Shown here: positions 3,115-38,818 of the stretch, piece after piece
How the letters are laid out: each line of letters begins with the position of its first letter
Numbering within the stretch: position 1 is the first letter of the stretch
NCBI GenBank assembly: GCA_023954715.1
Contig: JAGSHD010000001.1
Span: 556,468 to 600,611 of the forward strand
Reading direction: 5' to 3'
Source: Candidatus Cloacimonadota bacterium
Lineage (GTDB): Bacteria > Muiribacteriota > UBA6191
Length of the DNA: 44,144 nucleotides
Translations under genes and position numbers: made by a program
Notes under the pieces: generated by a model
The model's input: only the letters and a program-made list of their open reading frames with translations
Told to the model about the DNA's origin: nothing
Database searches by the model: none

Positions 3115-3200
3115 ATATCTTGACCTTTAATCTTAAGAATTCTAAAAGTTTATATTGATTGAGCTAATAAAAAGCTCTTTAAGGAAGCAATATGTATAAA

Positions 3201-9080: not shown

Positions 9081-11351
9081 TTAAGCCTTTATCTCTTGTA
9101 TTTTTGTCGTAACTTTATCTAATCTTTGTTGTTGCTTGGGGTCTGTCACGATTCCTTTAGATGCTTTTATAATCTCTAATGCTTTATCTAACTCACCTAA
9201 TTTTAAGCTGGTTGAAACTAAATCTCCATACCAAGAATCATTTTCGATTGTTAAAAAACCAAAAACAAGTTGTTTATAGGCATTTTTAAAATCACCTAAC
9301 TTTATGAATACTTGTGACAATAAAGAGTGTAAACGTACAGTATCGGGCAGAGTGCCATCTTGTATCATTTTTAAGATCTTTCTAAAAATAGGCCCCTGAA
9401 TCATTGATTTTGGCATTGCCGTCAATATTTCTATGAAGTTTCTATAATATCGATATTTGACATCTTGCTGATGTAATTTAGTTAGTAAAAACTCATCGCC
9501 TTTTTTAGCTTTTTTATACTGATAAGACAAGATTTCAAAGGTTAGCATACAGGTTTCATCTTGAGCAATAAGTCGTAAACATTGCTCCGTATCAACATCT
9601 TGCTCCATTTGCCGTGCTATATGAACTAAGGCCATTTGTATAAAAAAGTTTCGTAAGTATTTTTCACCAAGTTTACCGATAAACTGATGAGCTTTTCTCC
9701 ACTGTTTTTTAAGGCATAGGTCTCTTATTTTTATCATATACTCAAACAAGACATCATCAATAACACCATTAGAGCTTGAAACAAAGTCATGATCTCTAAA
9801 CCATATTTCTAAGTTTTCAATGATGATTGGATGTACATAATCTGTTGGCGTAAATTTTACATAATCATAAATTTGACGAATAGCTTGAATACCAACTCGT
9901 TGATCCACAGCACTTTCTGTAGCGATCAACTCTCTTAAATCATCTAAAACATAAGTAATCCCACCTAAAAACAAGACATAAGCTGCTACTGCTCTGTTTC
10001 TACCAGAATAGCTTTGATAATTTCGCTCTACATAGGATCGTAAGTCTGAGTTTGCCCAAAACTCTAGCCCTAGTAAAGCCGCTCTTTGGATCTCAACGTT
10101 TTCATCACCAAGTAACTCTTGATAGAGATCCTCTTTACCAGCTGGAACACTTTTAGCTATAGCATCAATACAAACTGAAACGATCTCTACATTATCTTTG
10201 TTTTTATTTAAAAGGTCATTGTAAAAGTCAAATAATGAAGCGTCTTCTAGGGTAGCTAATTGCTCAATTGCTTGAATTGTCACAAAGTCGATGTGACGAT
10301 CGCAAGCTTTCATCAATATATTTTTTACTTTTTCAGATTGGTTTCCTTGTAAAAAACGAATCACTTCTGTCAAAATATCTTCTCTTGTTTCGGATAATAA
10401 TAAAGAAGAGATCCAGTCTAACATTCTTTCATCTTTAGAAAACAACCTCGCCCCTTGAACCGCCATGATTCGAGCATCAAAAGAAGAGTTATTTAATAGA
10501 TTTGAAATTATTTTTAAACCTTTTTGTAAATCGTCATTAGACTTATTGTTTTCATATCGAATTGCCATTACTTCAGCAACGGTAGTAGCTAAACTAAAAC
10601 AATTTGAATCGGCATAGGTTTCTAACAAACTATCAGCAACTTGAGCCTCTTTTTTTAAGAAAATTAGACTTTGAATGGCTGCATTTACTACTAAATCAGC
10701 CTGCTTTTGTAAACATGACATGATTAGAGGAAACGCTATGTCTAAATCACCTTGGGCCATTACTCTTAGATAAGATGCTTTTAGATCAACACCTTCACAT
10801 TCATTGAATCGAGTCTTTAACATTTGGGTCTGAGCTTTTGAAAATTCACAAGTAAACAAAATCAATTTATCAAGTATAAATACTTCTTCTTCTTTGTTTA
10901 CATTGCCCAGGGACTCAATAACAAAATCTAAGCCTTCCGGATCTCCTAACTGACCCAAAGTAGCTATCATATCTTTTTTAACATGAGTTTCAAATTTATC
11001 CTGATTTTTTAACAAAAACTGGGTAATCTCTTTTGGTTTACCAAAATGCTTAAATGTGGAAAGAACCTCAATCTGTTGACCCATTGCTAAAGAAAAAATT
11101 TGTTTAGTCAAAACTTTGGCATAATAAGCGCTTGGCTTATTTTGGATGACTTTTATAACTGAATCAAAATATTCTTTGATATTAGATTCAGTAACCACTA
11201 GCTCGTCATATTTTGTAGATTTTAAATTTGCAATGAGCAAAATAGAAGTATGAACTAAATCCTTTTTGGGACTTTTCAATAGATCCGGTAAAAAATCAAA
11301 ATGAGGCGATAGAATTACCTCTAATAGATCTAATAATTTATTTGAAGACAT
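9081..11351 (-). CDS. large HEAT/ARM-repeat protein (756 aa), unknown function
   Basis: Repetitive alpha-helical pairs (LLxxLxDx-type repeats such as VQGARLFSKDER, IQAIEQLATLED, RAALLGLEF). No catalytic motif. Sits 6 bp upstream of the FKBP gene. Confidence 0.6.
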   Translation of the reverse strand: MSSNKLLDLLEVILSPHFDFLPDLLKSPKKDLVHTSILLIANLKSTKYDELVVTESNIKEYFDSVIKVIQNKPSAYYAKVLTKQIFSLAMGQQIEVLSTFKHFGKPKEITQFLLKNQDKFETHVKKDMIATLGQLGDPEGLDFVIESLGNVNKEEEVFILDKLILFTCEFSKAQTQMLKTRFNECEGVDLKASYLRVMAQGDLDIAFPLIMSCLQKQADLVVNAAIQSLIFLKKEAQVADSLLETYADSNCFSLATTVAEVMAIRYENNKSNDDLQKGLKIISNLLNNSSFDARIMAVQGARLFSKDERMLDWISSLLLSETREDILTEVIRFLQGNQSEKVKNILMKACDRHIDFVTIQAIEQLATLEDASLFDFYNDLLNKNKDNVEIVSVCIDAIAKSVPAGKEDLYQELLGDENVEIQRAALLGLEFWANSDLRSYVERNYQSYSGRNRAVAAYVLFLGGITYVLDDLRELIATESAVDQRVGIQAIRQIYDYVKFTPTDYVHPIIIENLEIWFRDHDFVSSSNGVIDDVLFEYMIKIRDLCLKKQWRKAHQFIGKLGEKYLRNFFIQMALVHIARQMEQDVDTEQCLRLIAQDETCMLTFEILSYQYKKAKKGDEFLLTKLHQQDVKYRYYRNFIEILTAMPKSMIQGPIFRKILKMIQDGTLPDTVRLHSLLSQVFIKLGDFKNAYKQLVFGFLTIENDSWYGDLVSTSLKLGELDKALEIIKASKGIVTDPKQQQRLDKVTTKIQEIKA

Positions 11352-18742: not shown

Positions 18743-19846
18743 ATGTTAAAAACTTATGATATTCGCTTTAAAATCATCGCTTCCTTTTTCTTTATTATCC
18801 TGTTGACTACTGTCTTTGTTGCAACCATCAACTTTATGGCCTCACAAAACTTGATTAAAACTCAAATCCAAAACGAGTTGGATCATTCAGCATCACTAAT
18901 TATTGATAATATTGAAGGTAAAATTTCTACTGCTAGTAAACTAGCCGATAAACTGAGCAAAAGTGACGAAATCATCAATGTATCTGAAAAAACAGGTGTT
19001 GCAATGGATCATTTTGTCCAATTTGTAGACCTCTATTTCAATGCATTTTACTGGGAAAAAAATGGCAAAGTAAATCATTGTAGCTACTACGATTTTCGAA
19101 ATATAGATCACTATTTAAAAGAAAACCTTTTTGAATATAAGAATGATTTTCCTGATTATGCGCGAGACATATTAAAAAATAAGCAAGCCCTATATACTAA
19201 AACTTTTTACCCAAAACCAGACCATTTAATTTTAGCTTACGCCGTCCCAGTGTTTCGAGATAAGGTCGTTTCCGGATTGATGAGTTTTGGAATCCACATT
19301 AATGATCCAAAAATTCAAAACATTGTTGAACGAATGATCCCTTCTCACAATGGTTTTGTCGCCTTAATTGATCACCAAGGAAAGATATTGGCTAAAGGTG
19401 GAAAAAGCCCAGCTAATTTCAAACATGTGGATTTAAAAAAACTCGATACCGATATTTTACGACTTGGACAAGATACCTTTAGTTATCGTCTTCAAAAAGC
19501 AAAACAAGCTGATATCTATGTACTAGTAGCCATCAATAATAATACAGCTTTATCTATCATTGATGACTTAGCTTTTTCTATTATCATATATTCATTTATA
19601 GCTTTAATATTGTCTATTATCCTATCGAGTCGTATTGCCAATTCTTTGTCTCAACCGATCAAGGCATTAATCGATGGAATCCAAGCAATTGATCAAGGAG
19701 TATACAGTACACAGATCAATACAAAAAGTAGCGGTGAACTCAATACTGCTATCAATGCCTTCAATCAAATGGCTCAAAAACTTCAACGAAACAAAATGAT
19801 TGAAAAAATTTGGATGAATCATTGGGAACAAAATGATGAAAAATAA
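18743..19846 (+). CDS. membrane sensor-like protein: TM, periplasmic Cache-like domain, TM, HAMP, and no output domain
   Basis: TM1 at residues ~13-35 and TM2 LAFSIIIYSFIALILSIILS. Then a HAMP-like amphipathic pair (SQPIKALIDGIQAIDQGVYS...ELNTAINAFNQMAQKLQ), after which the protein ends. Confidence 0.65.
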   Translation: MLKTYDIRFKIIASFFFIILLTTVFVATINFMASQNLIKTQIQNELDHSASLIIDNIEGKISTASKLADKLSKSDEIINVSEKTGVAMDHFVQFVDLYFNAFYWEKNGKVNHCSYYDFRNIDHYLKENLFEYKNDFPDYARDILKNKQALYTKTFYPKPDHLILAYAVPVFRDKVVSGLMSFGIHINDPKIQNIVERMIPSHNGFVALIDHQGKILAKGGKSPANFKHVDLKKLDTDILRLGQDTFSYRLQKAKQADIYVLVAINNNTALSIIDDLAFSIIIYSFIALILSIILSSRIANSLSQPIKALIDGIQAIDQGVYSTQINTKSSGELNTAINAFNQMAQKLQRNKMIEKIWMNHWEQNDEK

Positions 19847-22310
19847 CAAGATACCTAAACATATCTTGACCCTATGCCTTCTAGCACTATTTTTGTCTAT
19901 TAGCATTAATTTTTCGATCGTTTTAGGGCTTAGTTTATTTTTACAAAATCTAAGCGCCGCCCAACTACCCTACTTTTATATTTTGCTGAATGTCTTAAGT
20001 ATTTTATGTGGTTTTATCTTCTTTTTTTATCGTCCTAAAAGCATTCGCTCTATTATAAAGTTCGCTATTGCCAATAGCTGTATCCTCTTGTATTTCTATC
20101 TCTCTCCAAGTTTAAGTACAAGTAAATTATACCTTTTATATATTTGTACCTGTCTATTTAATATCTACGCTTTTATCTTCTTTTGGAATTTTGTCTCCAA
20201 TACTCTTAGTTTAAAAGAGATGAAACAATATGTTGGAGTCATTTCAGGAACTAACAACCTAGGCGCAGTATTTGCATCATTATTAGTAGGCCCCGCCTTA
20301 AGGTATTTTGACTTATCCACATGTTTTCTTGGACTTTTTATAGTCTATATTTTATTAGTTTTAGTCCTCATTCCACTTAAAAAACTAGAGTTAAACCCTA
20401 AAAAGCCATCGAGTTCATCAAATAAAACGAGTCCCCAAATATATAAACATAGCTTAGTTCGCCTCACTGCTTTGTTTATTTTTCTATCTGCGTTTATGAA
20501 GTTTTCTTTGGACTTTAGATATTCTATTGCCATTTCTGAACTATTTACAACTCAAGATCAACTTGCTAGCTTTATTGGAGGGTTTAACTCCGTTTTAAAA
20601 GCAAGCGGACTCATTTGGCAAATGCTCTTTTCTGCTTATGTCTTTAAACGCCTTTCTATCGTTCAATCATTATCTGTTATGTCCATTTGTACCTGTATTT
20701 TATCTATCTTTGCTTTTTTAACTCCTAACCCAAAGTTGGTCATAGCATTTCAATTTTGCTTTTTATTTTTTCTTACCACTTTTACGTTCCCTACTTTTAA
20801 CATTTTATTTGGGGCACTCAATGATTCCATCCAAGCTAAGGCCCGTTTTTTAAATGAGGGAATATTTTACTGTTTGGCAGTTTTACTATCTGGCCTACTA
20901 ATCATAGCCCTAAGAAAATTTAGTATACCCTCTCAAACTCTCTTCTTGTTTTTAACTGTCCTATCTATATTTTGGCTATGTTTTATAGCTAAAGTGAGAG
21001 ATGCTTATATCTCAGCCTTAAACGAAAATATCAATAGCAACATTGAAGGCTCAACTGAGACTTCTTCTGTCTCATCTCTGCACTCTTTACAAACAGACTT
21101 AAATCATAAAGACCCTCAAAAGAGATTAGACGCAATTTTAACCTTAAGAAAAACGAATGATAATCAGGCAGATCGTCTGATTCTTGATGTTTTGAAAACA
21201 GAACAAAATCCGCAAGTATTAAACATTCTTTTAAAATCAACTAAAAAGGTTAGAGTAGACTCAGAGTATAAATTAGAGGACAAGTTAGACATCAATGATA
21301 CACCAGAAAACATCTGCCAATTACTACGCTCTATCTCTCTTTCTAAGAAATCATCCATAGAGCCTATTCTTCCGTTTTTAAAACATAATGACCCTATGGT
21401 TAAAATCAACGCTATACTTGCTTGCTTCATATTATCTAACGATGAAGAACATTTAAAAGAAGCATCCAAACTATTTATTCATCTTATACAATCTGATAAT
21501 GTCAATGAACGAGAAGCGGCTGCATTATTGTTTGGTGATTTATCTATGGATTGTTTTATACCTTGTCTGCAAACCATGGTTTTTGACTCAGCACCTTCTG
21601 TTAGAAGAAACGCTATTCAATCCACTATCAAACAAGCTTCTAGTTCACATATTGACATCTTAAAGTCGGCCCTCAATAGCGAAAAGGATCAGAAAAACTT
21701 AGATCTTATCCATGACTCTTTAGAAATTCAAATGGATGAGTCCAAACGAATCTTAGATCGACTTTTATTAAAAGTACCCACCATCTATCAAGAAAAGGTC
21801 TTAACAGCATTTCATAAAATTGAAGATGAAAAAATACAAAAATTAGCCTGCCAATATTTATCCATTGAGCCTCACGAGCTAACCATTGATCTTATTCGTT
21901 TGATAGCCAAAAATCCTAAAGATGCCGAGTTTATAAAAATAATGTCTGCTTGTGTTACTACCGACATCATTTACTTAGATCAACTTGTTTTAGATATTTT
22001 TCTTAGTAACATTAATGAGTTTGATCATAAAGTTTTAAGAGTTATAGCAAACTTTTTAGACTCTAAAGATACTCAAGACATCATCAGAAAGGTATTCGAA
22101 CAAATCAATAGTACACAATATTCAATGCAAAACAAACTAAGAGTGTTACAAAGACTCTTAACTTTGGACGCTAGTTTTCCTTTAAAAGAAAGTGTTTTAG
22201 AAAACTTTTACAAGCAAGAGGATCAAAAAGTTGATATCTTAGAGGAGATCATTGATCACTCAGCCTATCCTAAAACCGTCAATGAATCGATCAAATTGGT
22301 ATTTTTATAA
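19833..22310 (+). CDS. fusion of a ~12-TM MFS-like transporter domain with a C-terminal cytoplasmic HEAT-repeat domain
   Basis: N-terminal 400 aa are hydrophobic with about 12 helices. The C-terminal 400 aa show HEAT-like repeats (DPQKRLDAILTLRKT, NPQVLNILLKS, NDPMVKINAILAC, SAPSVRRNAIQS). It overlaps the Cache-HAMP gene by 14 nt. Confidence 0.65.
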   Translation: MMKNNKIPKHILTLCLLALFLSISINFSIVLGLSLFLQNLSAAQLPYFYILLNVLSILCGFIFFFYRPKSIRSIIKFAIANSCILLYFYLSPSLSTSKLYLLYICTCLFNIYAFIFFWNFVSNTLSLKEMKQYVGVISGTNNLGAVFASLLVGPALRYFDLSTCFLGLFIVYILLVLVLIPLKKLELNPKKPSSSSNKTSPQIYKHSLVRLTALFIFLSAFMKFSLDFRYSIAISELFTTQDQLASFIGGFNSVLKASGLIWQMLFSAYVFKRLSIVQSLSVMSICTCILSIFAFLTPNPKLVIAFQFCFLFFLTTFTFPTFNILFGALNDSIQAKARFLNEGIFYCLAVLLSGLLIIALRKFSIPSQTLFLFLTVLSIFWLCFIAKVRDAYISALNENINSNIEGSTETSSVSSLHSLQTDLNHKDPQKRLDAILTLRKTNDNQADRLILDVLKTEQNPQVLNILLKSTKKVRVDSEYKLEDKLDINDTPENICQLLRSISLSKKSSIEPILPFLKHNDPMVKINAILACFILSNDEEHLKEASKLFIHLIQSDNVNEREAAALLFGDLSMDCFIPCLQTMVFDSAPSVRRNAIQSTIKQASSSHIDILKSALNSEKDQKNLDLIHDSLEIQMDESKRILDRLLLKVPTIYQEKVLTAFHKIEDEKIQKLACQYLSIEPHELTIDLIRLIAKNPKDAEFIKIMSACVTTDIIYLDQLVLDIFLSNINEFDHKVLRVIANFLDSKDTQDIIRKVFEQINSTQYSMQNKLRVLQRLLTLDASFPLKESVLENFYKQEDQKVDILEEIIDHSAYPKTVNESIKLVFL

Positions 22311-22407
22311 TGTAGCTTTGGTAGCTCGTTTCCACCACAATAATGTTTCTATAAATTTACTTCTTATTTATAAATCCATTTACTTTGTTCTTGCTAAATG
22401 ATACTTT

Positions 22408-22441: not shown

Positions 22442-22816
22442 ATGACTAATTCAGAAAATTTAATCTGTTCTGTTGTATGTCTCAACGAACAAAAAATACA
22501 GAATATACGTACCCAGCTAAAAAGTCAGTCTCATTTTAATTCGCAAGCAGATATGCTTAAAGTTTTAGGTCACCCTGTCCGCTTGGAGATTTTAGCTGTT
22601 TTACACTTAGAAGAAAGTTGCGTTTGCGATCTAGCTAACATATTACAAAAGCCCGTTTCTACTATTTCCCAACATTTAAAAAATATGAGAAATGTAGGTA
22701 TCTTACAATCTCGTCAAGATGGTAAATTAGTATTTTATAAACCAAATAGTTCTCCAGAAATCTGGAAACTAATTCACCCTTTCATTACAGTATTCAAGGA
22801 GAATAACTCATGCTAA
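22442..22816 (+). CDS. ArsR/SmtB-family metal-responsive transcriptional repressor (CVC metal-binding motif)
   Basis: HTH core LKVLGHPVRLEILAVL...ESCVCDLANILQKPVSTISQHLKNMRNVGIL. The ELCVCDL-type Cys pair in helix 3 is the canonical ArsR metal site. First gene of the efflux operon. Confidence 0.85.
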   Translation: MTNSENLICSVVCLNEQKIQNIRTQLKSQSHFNSQADMLKVLGHPVRLEILAVLHLEESCVCDLANILQKPVSTISQHLKNMRNVGILQSRQDGKLVFYKPNSSPEIWKLIHPFITVFKENNSC

Positions 22817-23169
22817 AGCAAATTATTATCGGATTAATTTTTATTGGAATTGGAGCTGGAGGGGCAGTGTTATATTTACAAAATCAAGCGCCTAAGCAAG
22901 AGGTTCATGTTCATGGAGCTGAATATTGTTCTAAACATAAAATAGCTGAAAGCGAATGTCCTTGGTGTGATAAAAGTCTAATTAAAAAAATGGGGATGTG
23001 TCCCGGTCATAAAGTACCCGAAGCTTTATGTAGTCGATGCAACTCTGACTTAATTCCTGGTTTTAAAGCTGAAAATGACTGGTGTGCTGGCCATGATTTA
23101 CCAGAGTCTCAATGTGATCTTTGTAAAGCTGGTCAATATCCGCCAGGTGAAGTACCTAAAGGAAGTTAA
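22810..23169 (+). CDS. small membrane-anchored Cys/His-rich metal-binding protein (119 aa)
   Basis: N-terminal TM IIIGLIFIGIGAGGAVLYL, then five C-x2-[CH] dyads: CPWC, CPGH, CSRC, CAGH, CDLC. An AGGAG RBS lies 8 nt upstream. It overlaps the arsR stop by 7 nt. Confidence 0.65.
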   Translation: MLKQIIIGLIFIGIGAGGAVLYLQNQAPKQEVHVHGAEYCSKHKIAESECPWCDKSLIKKMGMCPGHKVPEALCSRCNSDLIPGFKAENDWCAGHDLPESQCDLCKAGQYPPGEVPKGS

Positions 23170-23170
23170 T

Positions 23171-24688
23171 GTGAAACTCATTTTTAAGTTTGTAGCTTTA
23201 CTACTTTGTATAATTTGTGGTGCATCTATTGTTTTATATTTTGATGCAAGTACATCTTCTGGTCCTGATCTGCAACAATCTATATCCATAGAAAAGTGTG
23301 AGCACAAACTTGAAATAGGGACCTGTGCCTTTTGTGACCCTAAACTGATTGAATCTTTAGGCTTTTGTCATGGTCATGGAGTACCAGAGGCTTTTTGCAC
23401 TCGCTGTAACTCTGATTTAATTGTAGCATTTCAACACCTAAATGATTGGTGTAAAGAGCATAAACTACCCGAGTCCCAGTGCCAATTGTGCAAAAGTAAA
23501 AAGCAACCTAATAAAAAAACTTCTAAAATCGGGCTTAAGTTATTTGCTAATACAACTTTTAGAAGCCAAAGCAAACCAAATCAAGACTGTAAAAATCAAG
23601 ATGCATTGATTCGATTTATTGACTCAAAGATTATGAAAAAGTCTGGTATTAAAACAAGCAAACTTGCTCAAAGTATGGATCAAAATATTGTTTCATGCAA
23701 TGCCCAAATCAAGTATAACCAAAATAAATTGGCACATATTACGCCCCGTGCTAAGGGTGTTTTAACTACAATATCTAAAGACATAGGAGACAGCGTATTA
23801 CAGGGTGAAGTTTTAGCTAAAATTCACTCTAATGAGTTTTCTATAGCCAAGTCCGAGTACTTCCAAGCTCTTACCTTAGTCAAACTATGGGAGCAAAATC
23901 ATCAATCTGAACTAGCCTTGCAACAAGATGGCGCAACCTCTTCAAGAGAAGTATTACAAACAAAAACTAAGTTAGTAGAGAGTCAAATTATCGTCGAAAA
24001 GAGTCTTCAAAAACTACGAAATCTCGGTTTAAATAGTGATCAAATCAAGCACTTAAAAGCAAGTAGTAAATCTGACTCGAAATTATCAATTTTGTCCCCT
24101 TTTAATGGTCACATTAGTAAAAGACATGCGGTTACAGGTGAAATGGTAACTACCTCTAAATCTTTATTTACTGTTGTAGATACAAGCAAAATGTGGGCGT
24201 TTTTAGATATCCTTCCCAGTGATTTGACTAAAGTTAATATTGGGCAAAATGTAGAGGTTAAAATACCGGAGTTATCCCCTCTTTTATTTTCTGGGGTTAT
24301 CTCTTGGATTGATAGTGCTATCAGTGAGTCATCTCGTACTCTTAAAGCCAAAGTAGAGTTAAGTAATCAAAATCAAATGCTTAAGTCTGGTATGTTTGGT
24401 ACGGCTAATATTATTATCAATAACAATATTAACTCCTTACTTGTTCATAAGAGTTCTGTCCAATGGGATGGATGTTGCAACGTTATCTTTATCAAAAACA
24501 GCCCTCAAAGTTTTATAACTAAAAAGGTTACTCTTAAACCTTCGGGGGTAAATAAGGATTACTATTTAGCTCAAGGTGATATCAAAACAAATGATGAAGT
24601 AGCAACTACAGGGTCTTTTTTACTGAAAACTGAGCTTATGAAAGATAATATTGGTGCAGGATGTTGCGAAGCTGACTCAGGTAAGTAA
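23171..24688 (+). CDS. heavy-metal RND membrane fusion protein (CusB/CzcB-like) with an N-terminal Cys/His-rich module
   Basis: HlyD/MFP beta-barrel and lipoyl-like regions (ITPRAKGVLTTISKDIGDSVLQGEVLAKI, SPFNGHISKRHAVTGEMV). I set the start to GTG 23171 (MKLIFKFVALLLCIICGASIV, a signal/TM), one nt after the TAA of the preceding gene. The track's 23075 start would overlap that gene by 95 nt. Confidence 0.8.
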   Translation: MKLIFKFVALLLCIICGASIVLYFDASTSSGPDLQQSISIEKCEHKLEIGTCAFCDPKLIESLGFCHGHGVPEAFCTRCNSDLIVAFQHLNDWCKEHKLPESQCQLCKSKKQPNKKTSKIGLKLFANTTFRSQSKPNQDCKNQDALIRFIDSKIMKKSGIKTSKLAQSMDQNIVSCNAQIKYNQNKLAHITPRAKGVLTTISKDIGDSVLQGEVLAKIHSNEFSIAKSEYFQALTLVKLWEQNHQSELALQQDGATSSREVLQTKTKLVESQIIVEKSLQKLRNLGLNSDQIKHLKASSKSDSKLSILSPFNGHISKRHAVTGEMVTTSKSLFTVVDTSKMWAFLDILPSDLTKVNIGQNVEVKIPELSPLLFSGVISWIDSAISESSRTLKAKVELSNQNQMLKSGMFGTANIIINNNINSLLVHKSSVQWDGCCNVIFIKNSPQSFITKKVTLKPSGVNKDYYLAQGDIKTNDEVATTGSFLLKTELMKDNIGAGCCEADSGK

Positions 24689-27750: not shown

Positions 27751-29091
27751 TTATCTTCTGCTTCGTGGATACTGAAATGAAAACTCAATGTTTTGCTTAT
27801 CTTCTACAAAAGTCAGCTTTACTTTATATTTTGTATGTGGAGTCAGCTCAAACTCTACTCGATAAGCACTTGATTTTCTAACAGACTCTGGTGTATTTAC
27901 TGTTTTCATCTCTTTTGACTTTATCAGCTTTTTACCTTGATATATCTCAACTTTTATTGCTTTTGTATATAATCCTAACTCCGATGACCTATGAAATATT
28001 AACCAAGCCAGAGATTTCTTTTTACCTGATCGATATGTCCCTGTTAGGCAATAGTAAAACTCATCGCTCAAGTTAGACTTTTTAATGGGTATCTGATTTT
28101 CTATTAAAACGATTTCATGCTCTACTTCTGAAAAGTCTCTCTCCTGATCCCATATATTTGCATAACTTTGTGGAACCAAAATTATTGCTAATAAGAGTAT
28201 TTTGGCTGTAAGCCTATTGGTTGGACATATTGAAGTACAACGCATACATAAATCACAAGATGGGTCTTTGGCAACTGATTTAGGAGATAATCCTAACCAA
28301 CAATTTTCATTGCAAAGATCACATCCTTTTTCACATAAGTGTTTTTCTTTGTATGTAATAAATACTCTTCTAAACTCTCCGAGATAACTTAAAAATAAAC
28401 CTGTTGGACACCAATTTTTACAAAAACTTGTTGGATTTAAAATCTCATACCCAAGAACCATTACTATGATAACTAACCAAAGTCCAAACCCTCCAAATAA
28501 AACGTAATCACTCATAGCATGTTGTAACATGGCTGGTGGAAGTACATATTGTATGAGTAATGGGTTTAAAATTAATATCAATAACATAACCCCAAAATAT
28601 GCTTTACGGTTTTTGTCTTTTTTTACTAAGAGCTTCTCAATTTTAAGATACTTTCTGATTCGTAAATTAAGATTAACAATGAATGACATAGGACAAATAT
28701 AACTACAGTATATTCTACCTGCTATCAGTGCTAATATAATTGGTGTTATTAAAGAAAAAGCCATTGTGTAAGACCAATAATTAAAGTTAAAAAGATTTTG
28801 TAAAGTATATACAAACGAAGTAAATGGCTCAGAAAAGTGAATATTATAAAATCTAACACTATATGGCCCACCACTTACTTGGGTAAAAAACTCTCCTATC
28901 ACCCCCATAATATATTGATCGTAAACCAACAATTTTTGTACAATATAATTATTTTGTATCAACGGTGAGTTTAAATATGGGTATGGATCTTGCCTAAATG
29001 TTCTTATGATTTGAATCAATGGAGAGATCACTAGTAGTAGTATAAAAAACAATTGACTAAATCTTCTTAAATAAAGTAATAATCTAAACAT
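27751..29091 (-). CDS. NapH/CcoG-family membrane-bound polyferredoxin with a C-terminal periplasmic beta domain
   Basis: Multiple TM helices, the CPMSF motif, two 4Fe-4S-type Cys clusters (CEKGCDLCNENC and CDLCMRCTSICP), then a ~150-aa soluble C-terminal domain. It overlaps the napG-like gene by 8 nt. Confidence 0.7.
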   Translation of the reverse strand: MFRLLLYLRRFSQLFFILLLVISPLIQIIRTFRQDPYPYLNSPLIQNNYIVQKLLVYDQYIMGVIGEFFTQVSGGPYSVRFYNIHFSEPFTSFVYTLQNLFNFNYWSYTMAFSLITPIILALIAGRIYCSYICPMSFIVNLNLRIRKYLKIEKLLVKKDKNRKAYFGVMLLILILNPLLIQYVLPPAMLQHAMSDYVLFGGFGLWLVIIVMVLGYEILNPTSFCKNWCPTGLFLSYLGEFRRVFITYKEKHLCEKGCDLCNENCWLGLSPKSVAKDPSCDLCMRCTSICPTNRLTAKILLLAIILVPQSYANIWDQERDFSEVEHEIVLIENQIPIKKSNLSDEFYYCLTGTYRSGKKKSLAWLIFHRSSELGLYTKAIKVEIYQGKKLIKSKEMKTVNTPESVRKSSAYRVEFELTPHTKYKVKLTFVEDKQNIEFSFQYPRSRR

Positions 29092-29713
29092 GTTGAGTCT
29101 CCTTTCTTTCTACAATAATAGCTGATGGAAACTGCGGACACCTTTCTTCACAGCGCCCACAGCCAATACAAACCTCATTATCAATAATTGGTTTTGCTAT
29201 TGGCTTTAACTTTATGGCCTCCCCTTTTAATGGACATGCATCATGACATACTCCACATACTCGACCATTTTCAGATAAACAATGGGATCGAATTACCCTT
29301 GCGTCCCCCATCTTTACTTCTTTTTTTATTGCGTCTTTATTTCTTAAAATTGTTTTTAATGCATCTGTAGGACACACTTGCGTACAATTCATACATAGGT
29401 TACAAGACTTTTTTCTTACGTCTAAATAAGGAGTTCCAGCATATAAAAGCCCTTCGTTCATAGAAAAAAACTCTATGCACCCCGACTCACAGACGTTTGC
29501 ACAAGCTCTACATCGTATACATTTTGATAAAAACTCATCTTCGGACTCCGTACCAGGAGGTCTTAAAAAAGAAAACTTTGGGGTTTGATGCTTAAAAATA
29601 AAGTTACTGGCATGAACAAACTTTAGATATAAGCCACCTATCATAAAGCTAAGAAAACCTAAAACCTGCCTACGACTAAACTCAAAAACATTTACGTGCT
29701 TCTCGTCTTTCAT
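29084..29713 (-). CDS. NapG/MauM-like periplasmic ferredoxin with four [4Fe-4S] motifs and a twin-arginine signal
   Basis: SRRQVLGFL Tat motif. Cys clusters CIRCRACANVC, CNLCMNCTQVCP, CGVCHDACP, CIGCGRCEERCP. Confidence 0.75.
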   Translation of the reverse strand: MKDEKHVNVFEFSRRQVLGFLSFMIGGLYLKFVHASNFIFKHQTPKFSFLRPPGTESEDEFLSKCIRCRACANVCESGCIEFFSMNEGLLYAGTPYLDVRKKSCNLCMNCTQVCPTDALKTILRNKDAIKKEVKMGDARVIRSHCLSENGRVCGVCHDACPLKGEAIKLKPIAKPIIDNEVCIGCGRCEERCPQFPSAIIVERKETQHV

Positions 29714-31776: not shown

Positions 31777-34700
31777 TTATTGGCCTATCTCTAGGTCTAA
31801 CAATCGATTGGCCTTAATGTTAATCACTCCATCTTTTGAGACTCTTCGCCCCTCTGCAATTATAAAGTTAGATCGCCTAAAAATAATCCTATATTGCTCA
31901 TAAATTAATGGGGGTAATATGATGTTCATCATTCCAAACTCATCCTCTAATGTTAAAAATGCAAAGCCTTTAGCAGTAGGAGGACGTTGCCTGCAAACAC
32001 TCATTCCCGCTACTTTTAAAATATGTCCATTTCTAACTGTTTTTAATCTTGTAGAAGGAACAACCCCTGTTTTCACTAAGCTATCTCTCACCAATTTTAA
32101 TGGGTGTGTGGATGCAGAAAATCCTATAGATGAAAACTCATTTTGTAGCTTACTCCAATCACTTTCACTAGGAAGATCAGGCTCTTTTTCTTTCACTTGT
32201 ATCCATGATTTTTGTAAACTCCTCTTTTTATAAGCCCATAAACTCCATAATAACTCTCGTCTTGCTTGTTTAAAACAGTCAAAAGCTCCAGCTAGTATCA
32301 TATATTCAATTTTTTTATGATCCATATCTGTTCTATCTATAAAATCATACAGTCCTTCAAATATTTTTTCAGACCGAATAGAGTATATTTTTTCGCAAGC
32401 TGATATGGATAAACCTTTGATTAAATTTAATCCAATAAAAATTTTATTAGCTGCTCCAAAACAATATATTTCACTCTTATTAACACTAGGAGGAATGATT
32501 TCTATCCCATGATGCTTAGCATCTTGAATAATTACCTCATTTGAATAAAACCCCATAGGATGATGGTTTAGTATAGACGCCAAAAACTCTGCTGGATAAT
32601 ATTTTTTATACCAAGCTGACACATAAGTTATTTTTGCAAAAGCAAGCGCATGGGATTTACAAAATCCATATAATGCAAATCCTTCAAGAGCTTTATATAT
32701 GGAGTCAATCGCATCAAAGCTAAGTCCATTTTTTAAAGCTCTTTCAAAAAATACAGATTTTAACTGGGCCATAAGCTCTTTTGATCTTTTTTTACTCATA
32801 TTACGTCGTAATACATCCGCTTCTCCCTCACTAAAATCAGCAATCTCAATAGCCACTTGTAAAATTTGCTCTTGAAATAAAATTACCCCTAAAGTGTCTT
32901 TTAAAATTGGCTCCAAACTTGGGTGGTCATACTCTACCACTTCTTCTTTTTGCCTTCTTCTTATATAAGGATTTACCATCCCTCCTTGGAGTGGACCCGG
33001 TCTTATGATAGCTACTTGAATTGCTAATTCATGGAAGTTTCTTGGTTTTGTGCGAGGCAAACTCTGCATCTGTGCTCTTGACTCTACCTGAAACAAGCCC
33101 ACTGTATCTGCTTTACCCATTATGTCATAAACTCGTGGGTCATCCTCTTCAATATCTCTATAGTCGATCACACGATTTGTCGATTTTTTAATCTGATTTT
33201 TAACATCTCTTAAAACCGATAGCATCCTAAGACCTAAGATATCTACTTTAATTAGTCCAGCCTCCTCTACCATATCTTTATCCCACTGGCATACAACTCT
33301 GTTGTTCATCCTAGCGGGTTCTAGTGGTACAACTCTATGGATAGGTATAGATGATATAAGCATACCTCCCACATGAATCGAAGGATGCCTTGGTATGTTC
33401 ATGATAGCGTGTACCATATTTTGAAATACAATCCATGTTTTGGACTGAAGAAGCTTTGAAAACTCCTCCAATTTTGAAAAATCATCAAATGAAACTTTGG
33501 AGTTGTAAGTGCCGCATGTTTTAGCCATTTTTGATAAAACATGATCTGGAAACTCTAGTACCTTGCCAACTTCTTTTATGGCGCTACGAGCTCTAAATGT
33601 TACAAAAGTACAAACCATAGCTACATGATCATAACCGTACTTTTTATACACATATTGAATGATATCTTCTCGATCAAGCTCATTACCATTTGGGTAGCTA
33701 GCAAAGTCAATATCTATATCCGGAATCGCATCAGAGGATTCATTTAAAAACCTTCCAAAAAATAAATTGTGTTTAATAGGACAAACAGGAGTTATATCTA
33801 ATAAATAGGCTACTAAGGAGTTAGCTGCCGATCCTCTTCCTTGTGCTGGAATATTTTTGCCTAACGAATACTGAACAATATCCCAAACTAATAAAAAGTA
33901 TCCACATAAGGATTTATTTTTAATAACTTTTAGCTCAACCTCAAGTCTTTTATTTACTTCTCCTCTGTCTATGGTATTATTTTCAAAAGATACTCTATAT
34001 TTACGAGGAATCGCCTCATAGCATAGCTTTTGTAAGTAAGAATCTACCTTATACGAAGGTGGCACAGGAAAGTCCGGAAACCTATATTTTGAAAAATCTA
34101 AATTTAAACTACAAGACTCTGATATTTTTTGAGTATTATTTAATACTCTAGGATATTTTTTAAATAAGTCATTCATCTCTTCAAACGACTTTATAAATCT
34201 TTCATGGTTTGCAAATCTCAGACTATGTGACTCTCTTAGATTTACTTTATTTTTAATACATAATAATACATCCTGTAGTTTTGCATCCTCTCTTTTTGCA
34301 TAATGAACCCCGTTACTAGCGATGCACTCTATTTGCCTAGAGCTCGCATATTCATAAATCAAATCACAATGCTTTCTATCTTCTTTTTCTTTATGGTGAT
34401 TTAACTCAAAATACAAGTCTTGTTTATCAATATGTTTTAAATAGCTCGATACCAACTGATCTGCTTGATCTACTTTATTTTTTACTAACAAGTCATGTAA
34501 TACAGTAGATTTAAACCCTATCAAAACAAAAAAGTTATCATTTAACTCTAATAACATTTCATAAGTCGTCTTACTTATCCCCTTTTCTTGGCTTTTTCGT
34601 GATGCTGATATGATTGAGCATAAACTTTCGTAAGCACTTTGATTTTTACAAATCACCAAAATTTTATCGTTATTTTCTAATAATAAAATTGAGCCAATGA

Positions 34701-34884
34701 TTGGCTTGATCTCTAGCTCTATACATTTTTTGTAAAATGGTATTACTCCATACAAACCGGACTCATCAGTTAATGCAATAGCAGATAAACCCTTCTCCTT
34801 AGCCATAATTACCAAGTCTTCTGGGCTCGAAGAAGCACATAAAAACGAAAAATAACTCTGACTATGTAACTCTGAAAAAGACAT
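31777..34884 (-). CDS. dnaE2: error-prone DNA polymerase III alpha paralogue DnaE2 (ImuC)
   Basis: N-terminal PHP domain (ELHSQSYFSFLCASSSPEDL), polymerase core (GRGSAANSLVAYLLDITPV, DIDIDF), OB-fold C-terminus. At 1035 aa it lacks the tau/beta-binding tail of DnaE1. It sits immediately downstream of the imuB-like gene. Confidence 0.85.
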   Translation of the reverse strand: MSFSELHSQSYFSFLCASSSPEDLVIMAKEKGLSAIALTDESGLYGVIPFYKKCIELEIKPIIGSILLLENNDKILVICKNQSAYESLCSIISASRKSQEKGISKTTYEMLLELNDNFFVLIGFKSTVLHDLLVKNKVDQADQLVSSYLKHIDKQDLYFELNHHKEKEDRKHCDLIYEYASSRQIECIASNGVHYAKREDAKLQDVLLCIKNKVNLRESHSLRFANHERFIKSFEEMNDLFKKYPRVLNNTQKISESCSLNLDFSKYRFPDFPVPPSYKVDSYLQKLCYEAIPRKYRVSFENNTIDRGEVNKRLEVELKVIKNKSLCGYFLLVWDIVQYSLGKNIPAQGRGSAANSLVAYLLDITPVCPIKHNLFFGRFLNESSDAIPDIDIDFASYPNGNELDREDIIQYVYKKYGYDHVAMVCTFVTFRARSAIKEVGKVLEFPDHVLSKMAKTCGTYNSKVSFDDFSKLEEFSKLLQSKTWIVFQNMVHAIMNIPRHPSIHVGGMLISSIPIHRVVPLEPARMNNRVVCQWDKDMVEEAGLIKVDILGLRMLSVLRDVKNQIKKSTNRVIDYRDIEEDDPRVYDIMGKADTVGLFQVESRAQMQSLPRTKPRNFHELAIQVAIIRPGPLQGGMVNPYIRRRQKEEVVEYDHPSLEPILKDTLGVILFQEQILQVAIEIADFSEGEADVLRRNMSKKRSKELMAQLKSVFFERALKNGLSFDAIDSIYKALEGFALYGFCKSHALAFAKITYVSAWYKKYYPAEFLASILNHHPMGFYSNEVIIQDAKHHGIEIIPPSVNKSEIYCFGAANKIFIGLNLIKGLSISACEKIYSIRSEKIFEGLYDFIDRTDMDHKKIEYMILAGAFDCFKQARRELLWSLWAYKKRSLQKSWIQVKEKEPDLPSESDWSKLQNEFSSIGFSASTHPLKLVRDSLVKTGVVPSTRLKTVRNGHILKVAGMSVCRQRPPTAKGFAFLTLEDEFGMMNIILPPLIYEQYRIIFRRSNFIIAEGRRVSKDGVINIKANRLLDLEIGQ

Positions 34885-36360
34885 CTAAATGGAGTATTTA
34901 GTATAAAACCACTCTTGATCGCAACGATCAAAAAATATAGATGAAATTTGACCCTCTAATAAAAGGAGTAAAAAGTATTGTCTTTGAATCGGTTTTTCTA
35001 GCCACCATTCATCTTCAAAAATCCATGATCTTAATATTTTTTTTATAAAATAAGAACGACCCTTTAAATCAAACTTTTTTGGAATGTTTTCTTTTGATAA
35101 AACTCGAATTGGAATTGGCTTTAAAGTCTTTTTTGTCTCATAATTATCATCTACTAAAGTTAAATGTGATCTCTTTTCTGGTAGAATATGGTCTTCATTG
35201 TCCCAATCAAAATTATAAACTTTTAACTTTTTTTTATTTAAACGATGTATGCTCTGATGAATTGACCTCAACTTAGTAGAGCTCTTTAAAAAGTCCATTA
35301 AACTCTCTTGTTTTGAAAATTCAGAAAGTGTCTTGGGTATTTTAACTTTAAAAGCTACTACAGGATGATATAAGCGCATATTTAATAATTGATCTTCTAG
35401 CTGTCTAATCCATGTTTTCATATCACGGTTTGCCTTGGAAAAGCTCATGTCAAAATAAAGTGGAGCTCCTTGATCAAAAATTATTTGAATCGATATTTTA
35501 GCAGTTAATTGATGTCTTTCTTTTAATAGACTATTAAATACTAAAAGCTCAGACTTAATTTCTGAAGTCAAAAATGACAAATCCCATACCCAAGTACTAA
35601 AATACTTTTCTTTTTCTAAAATAATATTAGGATGCGATATCTTTAATGGATTAAAAATTTGACCACGAATTAATTTATATATACGCTCTCCTTCTTGAGA
35701 AAACTGTAAATATAACTCCTTATGTGTTAGACGAAACAAATCTTTAATTTTATATATTCCTAGCTTATACATTTTATTCAAATCTCTATTACTCAAGTTT
35801 AAATATTGAACCGAAATGTCGCCTAAATACTCTGCTTCTTTATTTTTTTTGATTAATAAACATTGCCCAGATTTAATCTTATGTAAAGCTAAATTTGCTA
35901 AAAACTTTGTACTTGCGATACTCACGCATGCTTTTAATTTTAGTTCACTTAAAATAGTACGGATCAATTTTAGACAAAAGTCCGATTGCTTATCCTCTTG
36001 AATCGCTGGATCCAATTCAAAATAAAACAACCCATAATCAGATTTTTCAACTTTTGGGGAGTAGCGATAAATAATTTCAAAAAGATCTTTTTGCTCTTTT
36101 TCTAAAATATTTTGTTCGCTTTGGATAAAACCGGCCTGAAAACATAAAGACTCTGCTTTTTTATGAAGCATTGAGACCTCTACCCCACACCTCGCTGCAA
36201 AACTAGATAAATCAGACACACGCAATGGTAGACTAGATGAATCCAATAAAATATAAGGTTTATCTAAAGGTAAGTTTTTATGCTTAACATGAGCATAAGT
36301 CTTAAAATATGGAATAGATACACAAACAATCATAAAATTATTATGAATTGTTTTAAGCAA
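34885..36360 (-). CDS. imuB: ImuB-like inactive Y-family polymerase paralogue
   Basis: N-terminal Y-family fold with the catalytic Asp replaced (IVCVSIPYF in place of LVDCNNFY), long C-terminal extension, gene abutting dnaE2 (34884/34885). The start may be the TTG at 36360 or the ATG at 36333. Confidence 0.6.
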   Translation of the reverse strand: MLKTIHNNFMIVCVSIPYFKTYAHVKHKNLPLDKPYILLDSSSLPLRVSDLSSFAARCGVEVSMLHKKAESLCFQAGFIQSEQNILEKEQKDLFEIIYRYSPKVEKSDYGLFYFELDPAIQEDKQSDFCLKLIRTILSELKLKACVSIASTKFLANLALHKIKSGQCLLIKKNKEAEYLGDISVQYLNLSNRDLNKMYKLGIYKIKDLFRLTHKELYLQFSQEGERIYKLIRGQIFNPLKISHPNIILEKEKYFSTWVWDLSFLTSEIKSELLVFNSLLKERHQLTAKISIQIIFDQGAPLYFDMSFSKANRDMKTWIRQLEDQLLNMRLYHPVVAFKVKIPKTLSEFSKQESLMDFLKSSTKLRSIHQSIHRLNKKKLKVYNFDWDNEDHILPEKRSHLTLVDDNYETKKTLKPIPIRVLSKENIPKKFDLKGRSYFIKKILRSWIFEDEWWLEKPIQRQYFLLLLLEGQISSIFFDRCDQEWFYTKYSI

Positions 36361-36425: not shown

Positions 36426-37613
36426 TTATTCACTAAATGTAGAAATAATCTCATTTTCATTTAATCCAGATACAACTTCTGTAAATACATTTCCTTGAGT
36501 TCCTAAGCTAATCTCACGCTCAACAAGCTTACCCAATGCATTTATTTGTACAAAATACTTATCTTGCCTCTCTAGGATGTAAATCCAAGGTATATATATA
36601 CAAGATTTTTTCTTTAGGCTAGTCACTTTGGCTTGTAAGCTTAAACCTGGCGTAAAGTAATCCTCTTTACCTTCAATCTCAAAGGTTAGTTTTACTTCTT
36701 TTAATTTAGAAGCAGGACCTTTCTCTCCCAATCTTTCATTTCTAGTGGTAGCAAATCTTGCTATTTTTACTAGTTTTGCAGAAATTTCATTTGCTGGGTC
36801 TACTTCTAATGATAATTTAGCTAAATCCCCTATTTTTACTTGAGCTGATTCGCTTTGTCTCACGTATACATGAGCCTCAAAAGAGCTCAAGTCAGGAACC
36901 TCTAACAAAAGATCCCCCATATCTACCACGCTACCCTTAGCTATTTTTGACATATTACCGCTTTGCTTTGTATAAGGGTAAAACAATAATCCGTCACTTG
37001 GTGATTTTAGTTTCATTCCTTCAATTTTCCGTTGGAATTTTTCAACCTCTTTTTGAGTCTTTTCTTTGTTTAATTTTGCAATAGATAACTTTGAATCTTC
37101 GTATTCTTTAAATTCATCTACTAGCTTTTGAGCCTGCTTTAATGATAAGTTTGCCGACTTAATCTCTAATTTTGCTTTTTCTTGCTCAATTTTTGGCATT
37201 AAGTCTGAATTATCATTTATCAATAGAAGCTTCGCTTTCTTTAACTCCAAAATCTTTCTATCTAAAGCATTTTTTCTTTTGGCTTCTTCTTTTTTAAGCT
37301 CTAACTCTGCAGTTTTTAAAGAATAACTCTTCAATTTTAAATTACTTTTTTCATCTTCGAATGCTTCTATTAGATCAGAGTCTTCAAATTCGAGAACTAC
37401 TTGCCCCTTTTTTACAAAGACCCCTTCTTTAACCACATTCTTTACCGTATATGCTGAGTACTTTTCAGCTTCTGGGACTCTCAATACAGCCTTCTTTTTT
37501 ACTGACAGTTCTCCCTGAAAATAAAAATCTTCTTTAAAATCTCCTGACTTAACTACAAAGTCTAAAGCTTCAAGATTAGAAACTATAAAAAACATAAATA
37601 AAAAAACAGTCAT
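36426..37613 (-). CDS. HlyD-family periplasmic adaptor (second adaptor of the ABC exporter)
   Basis: Signal/TM N-terminus, long coiled coil (KLKSYSLKTAELELKKEEAKRK...), C-terminal beta-barrel. Its start overlaps the permease stop by 1 nt. Confidence 0.7.
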   Translation of the reverse strand: MTVFLFMFFIVSNLEALDFVVKSGDFKEDFYFQGELSVKKKAVLRVPEAEKYSAYTVKNVVKEGVFVKKGQVVLEFEDSDLIEAFEDEKSNLKLKSYSLKTAELELKKEEAKRKNALDRKILELKKAKLLLINDNSDLMPKIEQEKAKLEIKSANLSLKQAQKLVDEFKEYEDSKLSIAKLNKEKTQKEVEKFQRKIEGMKLKSPSDGLLFYPYTKQSGNMSKIAKGSVVDMGDLLLEVPDLSSFEAHVYVRQSESAQVKIGDLAKLSLEVDPANEISAKLVKIARFATTRNERLGEKGPASKLKEVKLTFEIEGKEDYFTPGLSLQAKVTSLKKKSCIYIPWIYILERQDKYFVQINALGKLVEREISLGTQGNVFTEVVSGLNENEIISTFSE

Positions 37614-38818
37614 TACTGTACTACTTTCAAGGCTTCTACAGGACGCACCTTAGTTGCTTGAAATGCTGGTACCATTCCAAATATTAATCCTACTAAAATT
37701 GATGTCCCTACAGATACAAAACACGACATTACTGAGAAACGAATTGGCATTCCTGAAAAACTTGATATCATTTGCGCTAAAAACCAACCAAAAGCTAGCC
37801 CTAGTACTCCACCACATACAGAAATAAATAAAGTTTCTAATAAAAATTGATACAAAATATCTTTGGACTTTGCACCTACTGCCCGTCGTAACCCTATTTC
37901 AGGAATTCTTTCTAAAATATTGGCTAACATAATATTCATAATACCTATCCCTCCTACTAACAAAGAAATAAATGCTATGCTCAACATTACAATATTAAAA
38001 ATATCTTGGGTCTCATTTTTTTGCTTTAACAACTCTAAAGGGGCAGATATCTTACAAATAGAAACACCTTTATGATATCTATCAATATCTTTCTCGATAG
38101 CATATTTATAAGTAAGTGTGTTTTCTAGTTTATTCACATTTAAACGAATTTTATCTAGAGACATAAAAGCTTCATTGGGGGTTAGCTTGCTAAAAACAGT
38201 GCTAATAGGAAAGTAAGCTACAAGCTCTTTATTACCTGTTTTAGTAGTAACTGCCCCTATAACATCAAAAATAACATTATGCACTCTAATTTGCGTTTTA
38301 TTCGCTTTATCTAGCTTTTTCTTTAAAGAAGAAGATACTACAGCCACATTTAAGTTTTTTTCAAAGTCTCTGTTTCTAAAACTCCTACCTTGCGATTGAA
38401 TCAATGAAAAGTATTCAAAATACTTCTTAGAGACTGCCATATATTTCGCACTAAAACCTAACTGTTCTAATGTAGAAGAATAAGGGACAAAAGTTTTACT
38501 ATAAGCTATTCCCACAAAACTATTTTGATCTTGAAAAGTCTGCTTCAATCGATGTACATCTCTAATAGACAAACCTGGAGTTTTAGAAATATTTTTACGA
38601 ATAAACTCTTCATTGGCTTTAATTGCATCAAGAGTCACATAATTAGAGCCCATTTCTTCAAGCTTTTTTTGAATTTGAAAGTTTGCACCAGAAGATACAG
38701 CAACCATAGATATAACAGCACCAATTCCAAAGATGATACCTAACATAGCTAAAAATGTTCTAAGGGGGTGTAATCGTAAAACCAACCATGAATTATAAAT
38801 TAAAGTTCTTGTATCCAC
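37613..38818 (-). CDS. MacB/FtsX-family ABC transporter permease
   Basis: N-terminal TM, ~220-aa periplasmic domain, three C-terminal TMs (FtsX fold: LSIAFISLLVGGIGIMNIM..., VSVGTSILVGLIFGMVPA). Confidence 0.8.
   Translation of the reverse strand: MDTRTLIYNSWLVLRLHPLRTFLAMLGIIFGIGAVISMVAVSSGANFQIQKKLEEMGSNYVTLDAIKANEEFIRKNISKTPGLSIRDVHRLKQTFQDQNSFVGIAYSKTFVPYSSTLEQLGFSAKYMAVSKKYFEYFSLIQSQGRSFRNRDFEKNLNVAVVSSSLKKKLDKANKTQIRVHNVIFDVIGAVTTKTGNKELVAYFPISTVFSKLTPNEAFMSLDKIRLNVNKLENTLTYKYAIEKDIDRYHKGVSICKISAPLELLKQKNETQDIFNIVMLSIAFISLLVGGIGIMNIMLANILERIPEIGLRRAVGAKSKDILYQFLLETLFISVCGGVLGLAFGWFLAQMISSFSGMPIRFSVMSCFVSVGTSILVGLIFGMVPAFQATKVRPVEALKVVQ

Follow-up and report, generated by a model that had tools for sequence, protein, structure and literature searches.

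The locus described here raises the question of why a heavy-metal efflux operon should encode the same Cys- and His-rich module twice, once in a small protein of its own and once in the adaptor that serves the pump. The operon lies in a 44,144-nt stretch of DNA from a Candidatus Cloacimonadota bacterium (GCA_023954715.1, contig JAGSHD010000001.1, positions 556,468 to 600,611), referred to hereafter as the window. Four closely packed genes on the + strand encode, in order, an ArsR/SmtB regulator, a 119-aa protein that carries the standalone module (the S protein), an adaptor of the membrane fusion protein (MFP) type that carries the second copy (the M module), and a permease of the resistance-nodulation-division (RND) family. 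By analogy with a known copper system, we lean toward the idea that the operon is a thiolate counterpart of the relay from CusF to the CusB N-domain to CusA, working on Cd/Zn/Pb-type ions. An accessory metal-binding domain on a heavy-metal efflux (HME) adaptor, together with a partner carrier, is an arrangement of a known kind; the domain itself, its periplasmic Cys chemistry and the Cys-studded subfamily of adaptors appear to have no prior description in Pfam, NCBIfam, the PDB or the searchable literature.

The Cys/His module and its two copies

When the S protein and the adaptor were compared by BLASTP, residues 38-117 of the former aligned with residues 41-119 of the latter with 42/80 identities (53%), one gap and an E value of 4e-29. 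The DNAs of the two modules were 62% identical (127/204). An earlier reading of the window, made from its letters alone, had proposed two homologous copies of the module (the original prediction). Both are present on the + strand at the positions it gave, and the alignment establishes a homology that extends well beyond the spacing of the cysteines. The count of five Cys/His dyads per copy had to be corrected. There are six, arranged as three CHCC units, the first C-x2-H having been overlooked (in S it reads CSKH, and in the adaptor C-E-H, with one residue fewer). The module thus consists of three tandem C-x2-H-x6-C-x2-C units in about 70 residues, with nine cysteines and three histidines. A secondary BLASTP match (E=3e-4) set the first knuckle of one copy against the third of its counterpart, which points to an internal repeat. 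In a six-frame regular-expression scan of the window, the pattern C-x(1-3)-H-x(4-9)-C-x2-C occurred just six times, three times in the S open reading frame (ORF) and three times in that of the adaptor.

The ligand positions of the S protein (C40 H43 C50 C53, C64 H67 C74 C77 and C92 H95 C102 C105) were invariant at 12/12 sites in 28 S homologues, and the 12 Cys/His ligand residues were likewise invariant in 53 adaptors. Additional residues that did not vary in the 28 S homologues were P51, G62, E71-A72-L73, L81-I82, G84-F85, D90-W91 and P98-E99-S100-Q101. The consensus of 940 distinct units, pooled, was [DG]-W-C-x-[EG]-H-G-[VLI]-P-E-[SA]-x-C-x-x-C-N-P-x-L-[IV]. Because it is conserved in 62 S homologues and in 336 cluster representatives at E≤1e-10, the module is not a chance pattern.

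All of the 62 S homologues, which range from 80 to 190 aa, came from metagenomes or metagenome-assembled genomes (MAGs), and several had two tandem modules. A full-length search with the adaptor returned 388 relatives at E≤1e-10. Each of the best 120 of these contained at least one unit; 100 had exactly three and the others had 4 to 12 (up to four modules). Both vicinal Cys-Cys motifs of the adaptor (Table 1) were present in 119 of the 120. A word-indexed search with the adaptor N-terminus had found one relative only, which reflects a limit of that method, as the full-length and profile searches show that the fusion is common. Adaptors with two to four tandem modules included P0069 (730 aa), P0071, P0078, P0080 and others, in which the number of CHCC units rises to as many as 12 and that of cysteines to 43. 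Some adaptor lineages had two-unit instead of three-unit modules, with a repeated unit spacing of 28 aa.

An exhaustive HMMER profile search over 1.84 billion representative proteins yielded 600 clusters at E≤1e-3, including the 336 mentioned above. Among the best 150 of the 600 clusters, 138 were sorted into 65 adaptor fusions, 67 short proteins and six proteins of 272-340 aa. Four of the six had no Pfam domain, P0220 had a partial HlyD_D23 domain (a truncated adaptor) and P0203 had a sub-threshold match only. In one adaptor among the 138 the module follows the core, and no other confident domain partner of the module was found in this set. The possibility that the module is a zinc ribbon of broad occurrence is therefore not borne out, since among the proteins examined it was confined to metal-efflux adaptors and short tethered proteins.

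In species-representative genomes we found 19 loci, all of them in MAGs, from lineages that include Planctomycetota, Thermodesulfobacteriota, Holophagae, Sumerlaeota, Lentisphaeria and Verrucomicrobia. The gene order S, module-bearing adaptor, RND permease recurred across phyla wherever the contig permits, and an ArsR gene was located upstream in about half of the loci. Two loci that have no S gene, L033 and L034, carry a gene for an outer-membrane factor of the OEP family directly upstream of the adaptor gene. A different small secreted Cys-rich protein is encoded just upstream of the efflux genes in L005 (7450-7833) and L034 (5274-5642); CC pairs occur in both proteins (e.g. HCCDH...DDCPDGCLSCFLPCCAG), one of which is weakly tagged as DUF8199.

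To date the two copies relative to each other, identities were compared among nine S and eight M modules, with eight same-genome pairs, taken from the window and from eight additional loci. Mean identity between genomes was 70.7% for S-S and 66.6% for M-M pairs. In contrast, S and M modules were 55.8% identical on average within one genome and 55.3% identical between genomes. Because S-S and M-M identities between genomes exceed the S-M identity within one genome, the S/M split is ancient. The tandem duplication that had been suggested originally was rejected as a recent, local event in this genome. Judging from these identities, S and M are old paralogues that have been kept side by side as separately conserved types. 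The signature of the S type is C-x2-H...C-P-W-C, VPEALC and LIPGFKAENDWCAGH, and that of the M type is C-x-H...C-[AP]-F-C and VPEAFCTRC.

The S protein and the adaptor have one hydrophobic segment each, at the extreme N-terminus, and AlphaFold2 (AF2) modeled residues 2-26 of both as a helix. Many relatives have a lipoprotein signal in place of the helix (e.g. ...LITAC-EK and ...LSGC-QEK). Because the adaptor core is periplasmic, no hydrophobic stretch lies between core and module, and lipoboxes are found in relatives, we place the module outside the cytoplasm, tethered to the membrane. The original prediction had allowed for a periplasmic or a cytoplasmic location; the single N-terminal segment, the periplasmic body of the adaptor and the lipoprotein signals uphold the first and argue against the second.

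The AF2 model of the adaptor had a mean predicted local distance difference test (pLDDT) score of 85.6. Means over 10-residue blocks were 87-93 for residues 41-100 and 76 for residues 101-110, and values were below 50 for residues 28-39 and 111-128 (linkers) and for residues 495-505 (C-terminal tail). The M module is accordingly modeled as an independently folded bead between two flexible linkers. Confidence was moderate for the S protein (pLDDT 72). The predicted unit is a short hairpin bearing C-x2-H, a turn at P-E, and then C-x2-C leading into a helix.

Searches of Pfam and NCBIfam with both modules, the 28 homologues (E≤10) and multi-module relatives yielded only sub-threshold zinc-finger noise. 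The best hit of a sequence-profile search of the PDB (E=0.07) was not significant. Fold searches with the module gave no match, and no description of it was found in literature searches. The original remark that the module was not recognized as a named domain is consistent with these results, no family in Pfam, NCBIfam or the PDB having matched. One S homologue, P0038, came with a precomputed assignment to Pfam PF26237, which hmmscan against a local copy of Pfam did not reproduce. An interpretation as a heme c or Fe-S protein was dropped because the sequences have neither the C-x2-C-H motif nor cluster-type spacing.

The known domain that most invites comparison is Pfam HMBD (PF19335; Y-x-C-P-M-H-P-E-...-C-P-x-C-G-M), a domain of metal ATPases and of certain adaptors. 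Its ligand order, C-x2-H followed by C-x2-C, is that of the module. In an RND adaptor encoded on a Bernardetia plasmid, HMBD directly follows the N-terminal anchor, which is where the M module sits as well; metal P-type ATPases such as SilP carry it too. HMBD has a 10-residue spacer between its knuckles, against six residues in this module, it usually comes as one or two units in contrast to the fixed triple module described here, and we know of no standalone partner gene for it. The hidden Markov model of HMBD (gathering score 23.6 bits) did not match either module of the window or the 28 S homologues at E≤10, although it detected a positive-control peptide at E=1e-34 (118 bits). The best score among relatives was that of the 12-unit P0069 (E=0.004, 17.4 bits), which is sub-threshold. 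Alignment of the module with HMBD by hhalign covered 12 columns around the C-x2-C of the second knuckle alone (probability 70%, P=4e-5), with an HMBD profile built from natural plasmid-borne domains, just seven sequences in all. Kinship with HMBD is thus only hinted at by the sequences; the order of anchor, CHCC knuckle and adaptor has a precedent in the Bernardetia protein, and membership in HMBD is not established.

The adaptor, the pump and the regulator

The core of the adaptor was recognized by Pfam HlyD_D23 (E=8e-46) and by TIGR01730 (113.4, cutoff 94.9). The narrower CzcB/NccB model, TIGR00999, gave 113, below its cutoff of 319. The closest solved relative by sequence was ZneB (E=3e-16); by fold, the closest were ZneB and CusB, with ZneB on top. 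Outside the module the adaptor contains five invariant cysteines (C140, CC435/436 and CC498/499) and the near-invariant C176. ZneB and CusB differ in this respect. Residues ~297-306 of ZneB, which align with W-D-G-C-C-N of the adaptor, read VQSGFYTRAF and include no cysteine, and ZneB binds Zn through His and Glu at the interface of the barrel and membrane-proximal domains without any of the cysteines seen here.

The permease scored 1139 bits with TIGR00914 (cutoff 701), the model of CusA/CzcA-family RND permeases. Among solved relatives it matched ZneA (E=3e-191) better than CusA (E=7e-169). The positions of the CusA Met triad (M573, M623 and M672) are occupied by N, L and E, which makes a Cu(I) pump of the CusA type the less likely assignment. 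Transmembrane helix 4 (TM4), AIDFGLIVDSSVILVEN, contains the motif D-x5-D-x6-E, a proton-relay signature found in pumps for divalent cations; its residues D393, D399 and E406 were invariant in 14 partner pumps. The TM4 signature serves to classify HME pumps (PMC7060636). A periplasmic set of residues was also conserved in the 14 partner pumps: E137, H140, D604, M606, E609, D612, E655, M656, E660 and M661. This set overlaps the positions of the ZneA proximal site. The invariant periplasmic motifs of the partner pumps (residues 137-140, 604-612 and 655-661) are G-L-G-E-x-x-H-Y, A-T-D-P-M-G-I-E-L-S-D and I-E-M-R-V-N-E-M, a mixture of carboxylate, Met and His that resembles neither the CusA Met triad nor an all-acidic site.

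The cores of both pump and adaptor have their closest solved relatives in ZneCBA/CzcCBA of Cupriavidus metallidurans, with which the acidic motif of TM4 is shared. No protein of the OEP family was found among the window ORFs of at least 100 aa that were scanned, although the related loci L033 and L034 carry a gene for such an outer-membrane factor.

The regulator, a winged-helix protein, has an N-terminal C9-x3-C13 motif and, in helix 3, C60-V-C62 as part of C-V-C-D. Its closest solved relatives were Listeria Lmo1102 (E=1.7e-17) and Staphylococcus aureus CadC (1U2W, E=1.6e-10), with alignments that span both Cys motifs, and both motifs were kept in four of five regulators at related loci. We take these residues to be the four alpha3N cysteines with which CadC senses Cd, Pb and Zn. 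By its sequence, the protein resembles a CadC-type ArsR/SmtB metal sensor with all four Cys ligands present. The type of regulator and the type of pump favor Cd(II), Zn(II) or Pb(II) as the cargo.

A proposed thiolate relay and its alternatives

The relay that we favor could operate as follows, if we infer correctly that metal is bound, in what stoichiometry and of what identity, and that it is transferred and in which direction. A rise of Cd(II), Zn(II) or Pb(II)-type ions would cause the CadC-like repressor to de-repress the operon. The S protein would capture thiophilic ions where the inner membrane faces the periplasm, S and M each being able to bind perhaps as many as three. By ligand exchange, the ions would move from S to its homologue, the flexibly linked M module, and from there to the periplasmic entry site of the ZneA/CzcA-like proton antiporter, possibly by way of C140, CC435/436 and CC498/499 of the adaptor. 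The pump would then expel them through an outer-membrane channel encoded elsewhere.

Precedents for the steps of this scheme are found in the Cus and Sil systems. Transfer of metal from CusF to CusB to CusA is documented (PMC8277102; PMC4446572). The analogy with CusF and the CusB N-domain, which had been drawn in the original prediction, fits both the conserved synteny and the precedent of SilB, an HME adaptor whose fused CusF-like domain is also known as a protein in its own right (PMC4446572). As in CusF/CusB/SilB, what would be a small periplasmic metal carrier is encoded beside an HME-RND adaptor with a flexible, putatively metal-binding extension; as in CusF/SilB, one domain is found both standalone and fused to the adaptor. 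The differences are chemical and structural. CusF and CusB use Met, His and Trp ligands, whereas the present module offers Cys3His in three short knuckles, and CusF is a soluble OB-type beta-barrel, whereas S is tethered to the membrane. The extension of the adaptor is N-terminal and homologous to the carrier here, and the pump is ZneA-like in contrast to the CusA of the Cus system. Searches of Pfam, NCBIfam and the PDB showed no sequence similarity of the module to CusF or to CusB with its M21/M36/M38 site. A thiolate parallel is provided by MerP and MerT, where reduced periplasmic cysteine pairs carry thiophilic metal to a membrane transporter. MerP, however, has a ferredoxin-like HMA fold with a single CxxC and feeds import for reduction rather than RND export, and no similarity of MerP to the module was detected.

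Several points weigh against a relay of this kind. The periplasm is normally oxidizing, and the nine cysteines might form disulfides instead. No structure has been solved for any member of the module family, and the convergence of the four ligands of each unit on one site is putative; the modeled layout is compatible with a zinc knuckle or treble clef. The CadC-like regulator is present at only about half of the loci. In relatives L010, L013, L023, L024, L033 and L035 the adaptor has the module and there is no S gene, so S is dispensable in some lineages. In the pump, no cysteine was conserved across the 14 partners, so that a path made of thiolates alone would not extend past the adaptor, and the conserved periplasmic Met606, Met656 and Met661 leave Cu(I)/Ag(I) open.

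Tentatively, the relay can be extended to a bolder proposal, which we hold to be possible rather than probable. The operon may represent an undescribed class of heavy-metal RND system built on periplasmic thiolate chemistry, in which a tethered (Cys3His)x3 chaperone, the adaptor module and a ladder of cysteines (C140, C176, W-x-G-C-C-N and G-A-G-C-C-E) would hand chalcophile metals on, step by step, to a ZneA-like pump. Such a system might be specialized for habitats that are sulfidic or low in oxygen and in which the thiols of the periplasm would stay reduced. The accessory sites of characterized HME-RND adaptors and their partners are of the Met/His (CusB, CusF, SilB) or His/Glu (ZneB) type, and a Cys-based periplasmic domain with nine cysteines and three histidines per module would solve the problem by a different chemistry. 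It raises the question of how thiols outside the cytoplasm can stay reduced and available for exchange. The system is small, comprising three genes and a regulator. Metal-resistance surveys of these phyla miss the family because no Pfam or NCBIfam model exists for it, its members are labeled 'hypothetical protein' or 'adaptor subunit', and it is known from MAGs only.

Among the alternatives, the one that survives best, although we regard it as unlikely, is that the CHCC sites hold structural or otherwise non-exchangeable zinc. The module would then be a docking or regulatory domain, and S would bind M or the pump for assembly or activation without carrying cargo. Such a role would suit Cys3His knuckles, which are typical of structural zinc sites, and the weak Pfam matches, which were all to zinc-finger or zinc-ribbon families; the separate conservation of S and M is what one would expect of partners that recognize each other. 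A review reports that CusB activates CusA directly (PMC4446572), and the CusB N-domain has been proposed as a switch for CusA. What speaks against this alternative is the multiplication of modules up to four-fold (12 units in P0069), which fits ligand capacity or avidity better than a single docking surface, together with the six further conserved cysteines of the adaptor (C140, CC435/436 and CC498/499, invariant, and C176, near-invariant) and the exclusive association of the module with heavy-metal-type adaptors among the proteins examined.

A distinctly less probable variant leaves the relay unchanged and replaces its cargo by Cu(I), Ag(I) or possibly Hg(II). The preference of the pump for ZneA over CusA and the N, L and E at its CusA triad positions do not favor this, nor does the aspartate with which D-x5-D-x6-E opens in its TM4, a residue that CusA is not known to have. 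The closest solved relatives of the regulator are cadmium sensors, yet alpha3N sensors of the ArsR family can respond to Cu(I) too. Cys and His are very tight ligands of Cu(I) and Hg(II), MerP sets a precedent for a periplasmic thiolate carrier, and the conserved M606, M656 and M661 of the pump are near the positions of CusA M623 and M672.

The weakest alternative, a disulfide-rich periplasmic fold that has structural cystines, plays no part in metal handling and acts as a spacer or stabilizer of the adaptor, would agree with the extracytoplasmic location and the moderate AF2 confidence for the S protein, but we consider it very improbable given three histidines invariant at a fixed C-x2-H spacing, an odd number of cysteines per module, a ligand pattern equal to that of the HMBD metal-binding knuckle and an operon context that is wholly metal-related.

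Coordinates and neighboring genes

The features of the operon are collected in Table 1. The start of the S gene overlaps the stop of the regulator gene by 7 nt; the S protein appears in the public record MCO4781135.1 as 'hypothetical protein'. The longest ORF of the adaptor would open at ATG 23075. We assigned the start to GTG 23171, 2 nt past the stop of the S gene, because the public annotation of an identical protein agrees (P0064, 100% identity and coverage, from a 'Candidatus Cloacimonetes bacterium' MAG, annotated as 505 aa). The inverted repeat upstream of the regulator gene is a candidate operator, proposed with low confidence; a promoter scan showed no enrichment over shuffles.

Table 1. 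Positions in the window of the genes, modules and conserved adaptor cysteines of the efflux operon.
Feature	Position	Strand	Remarks
Imperfect inverted repeat	22342-22380		15-nt arms, 9-nt spacer; upstream of regulator gene
ArsR/SmtB-family repressor, CadC type	22442-22816	+	Pfam HTH_5 E=8e-14; NCBIfam HTH_metalloreg 75, cutoff 55
Standalone (S-type) module protein, 119 aa	22810-23169	+	N-terminal transmembrane anchor at aa ~2-26, then one module
S-type module	22927-23124	+	Three CHCC units: 22927-22968, 22999-23040, 23083-23124
CzcB/ZneB-like periplasmic adaptor (MFP), 505 aa	23171-24688	+	Transmembrane helix at aa 2-26, M-type module, adaptor core
M-type module	23297-23491	+	Three CHCC units: 23297-23335, 23366-23407, 23450-23491
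Adaptor Cys140	23588-23590	+	Invariant in 53 subfamily adaptors
Adaptor Cys176	23696-23698	+	Near-invariant
Adaptor vicinal Cys435-Cys436	24473-24478	+	Invariant motif W-x-G-C-C-N, membrane-proximal part
Adaptor vicinal Cys498-Cys499	24662-24667	+	Invariant; C-terminal tail I-G-A-G-C-C-E, predicted flexible
CzcA/ZneA-type heavy-metal RND permease, 1017 aa	24689-27742	+	ATG immediately after adaptor stop

The window, which has a G+C content of 33%, is ordinary chromosome, with genes for ribosomal proteins, DnaB, FtsH and Ddl close by. Directly upstream of the operon, on the + strand (19833-22310), is a gene for an 825-aa protein in which a membrane domain like that of the major facilitator superfamily is followed by C-terminal HEAT repeats, an unusual fusion; a second HEAT-repeat protein is encoded at 9081-11351. 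Two genes on the - strand (27751-29713) converge on the pump gene. They encode a polyferredoxin-like membrane protein (Fer4_5) and a multi-4Fe-4S protein with a twin-arginine-like N-terminus, which by eye are like NapH and NapG. Also on the - strand, at 1045-3779, the gene for an FtsH-like AAA protease lies beside one for a protein that matches 'FtsH ternary system domain X5' (fvmX5, E=1e-27), and the two may form a conflict or defense cassette. Proteins of 1035 aa and 491 aa encoded at 31777-36360 (- strand) look by eye like an error-prone polymerase of the DnaE2 type and an ImuB-like partner. This pair is adjoined by a MacB-like export cluster of the ATP-binding cassette type (36426-40438), two ORFs of which were included in the family scan: 38800-39774 gave no match and 36426-37613 matched HlyD_3, which is related to HlyD_D23.

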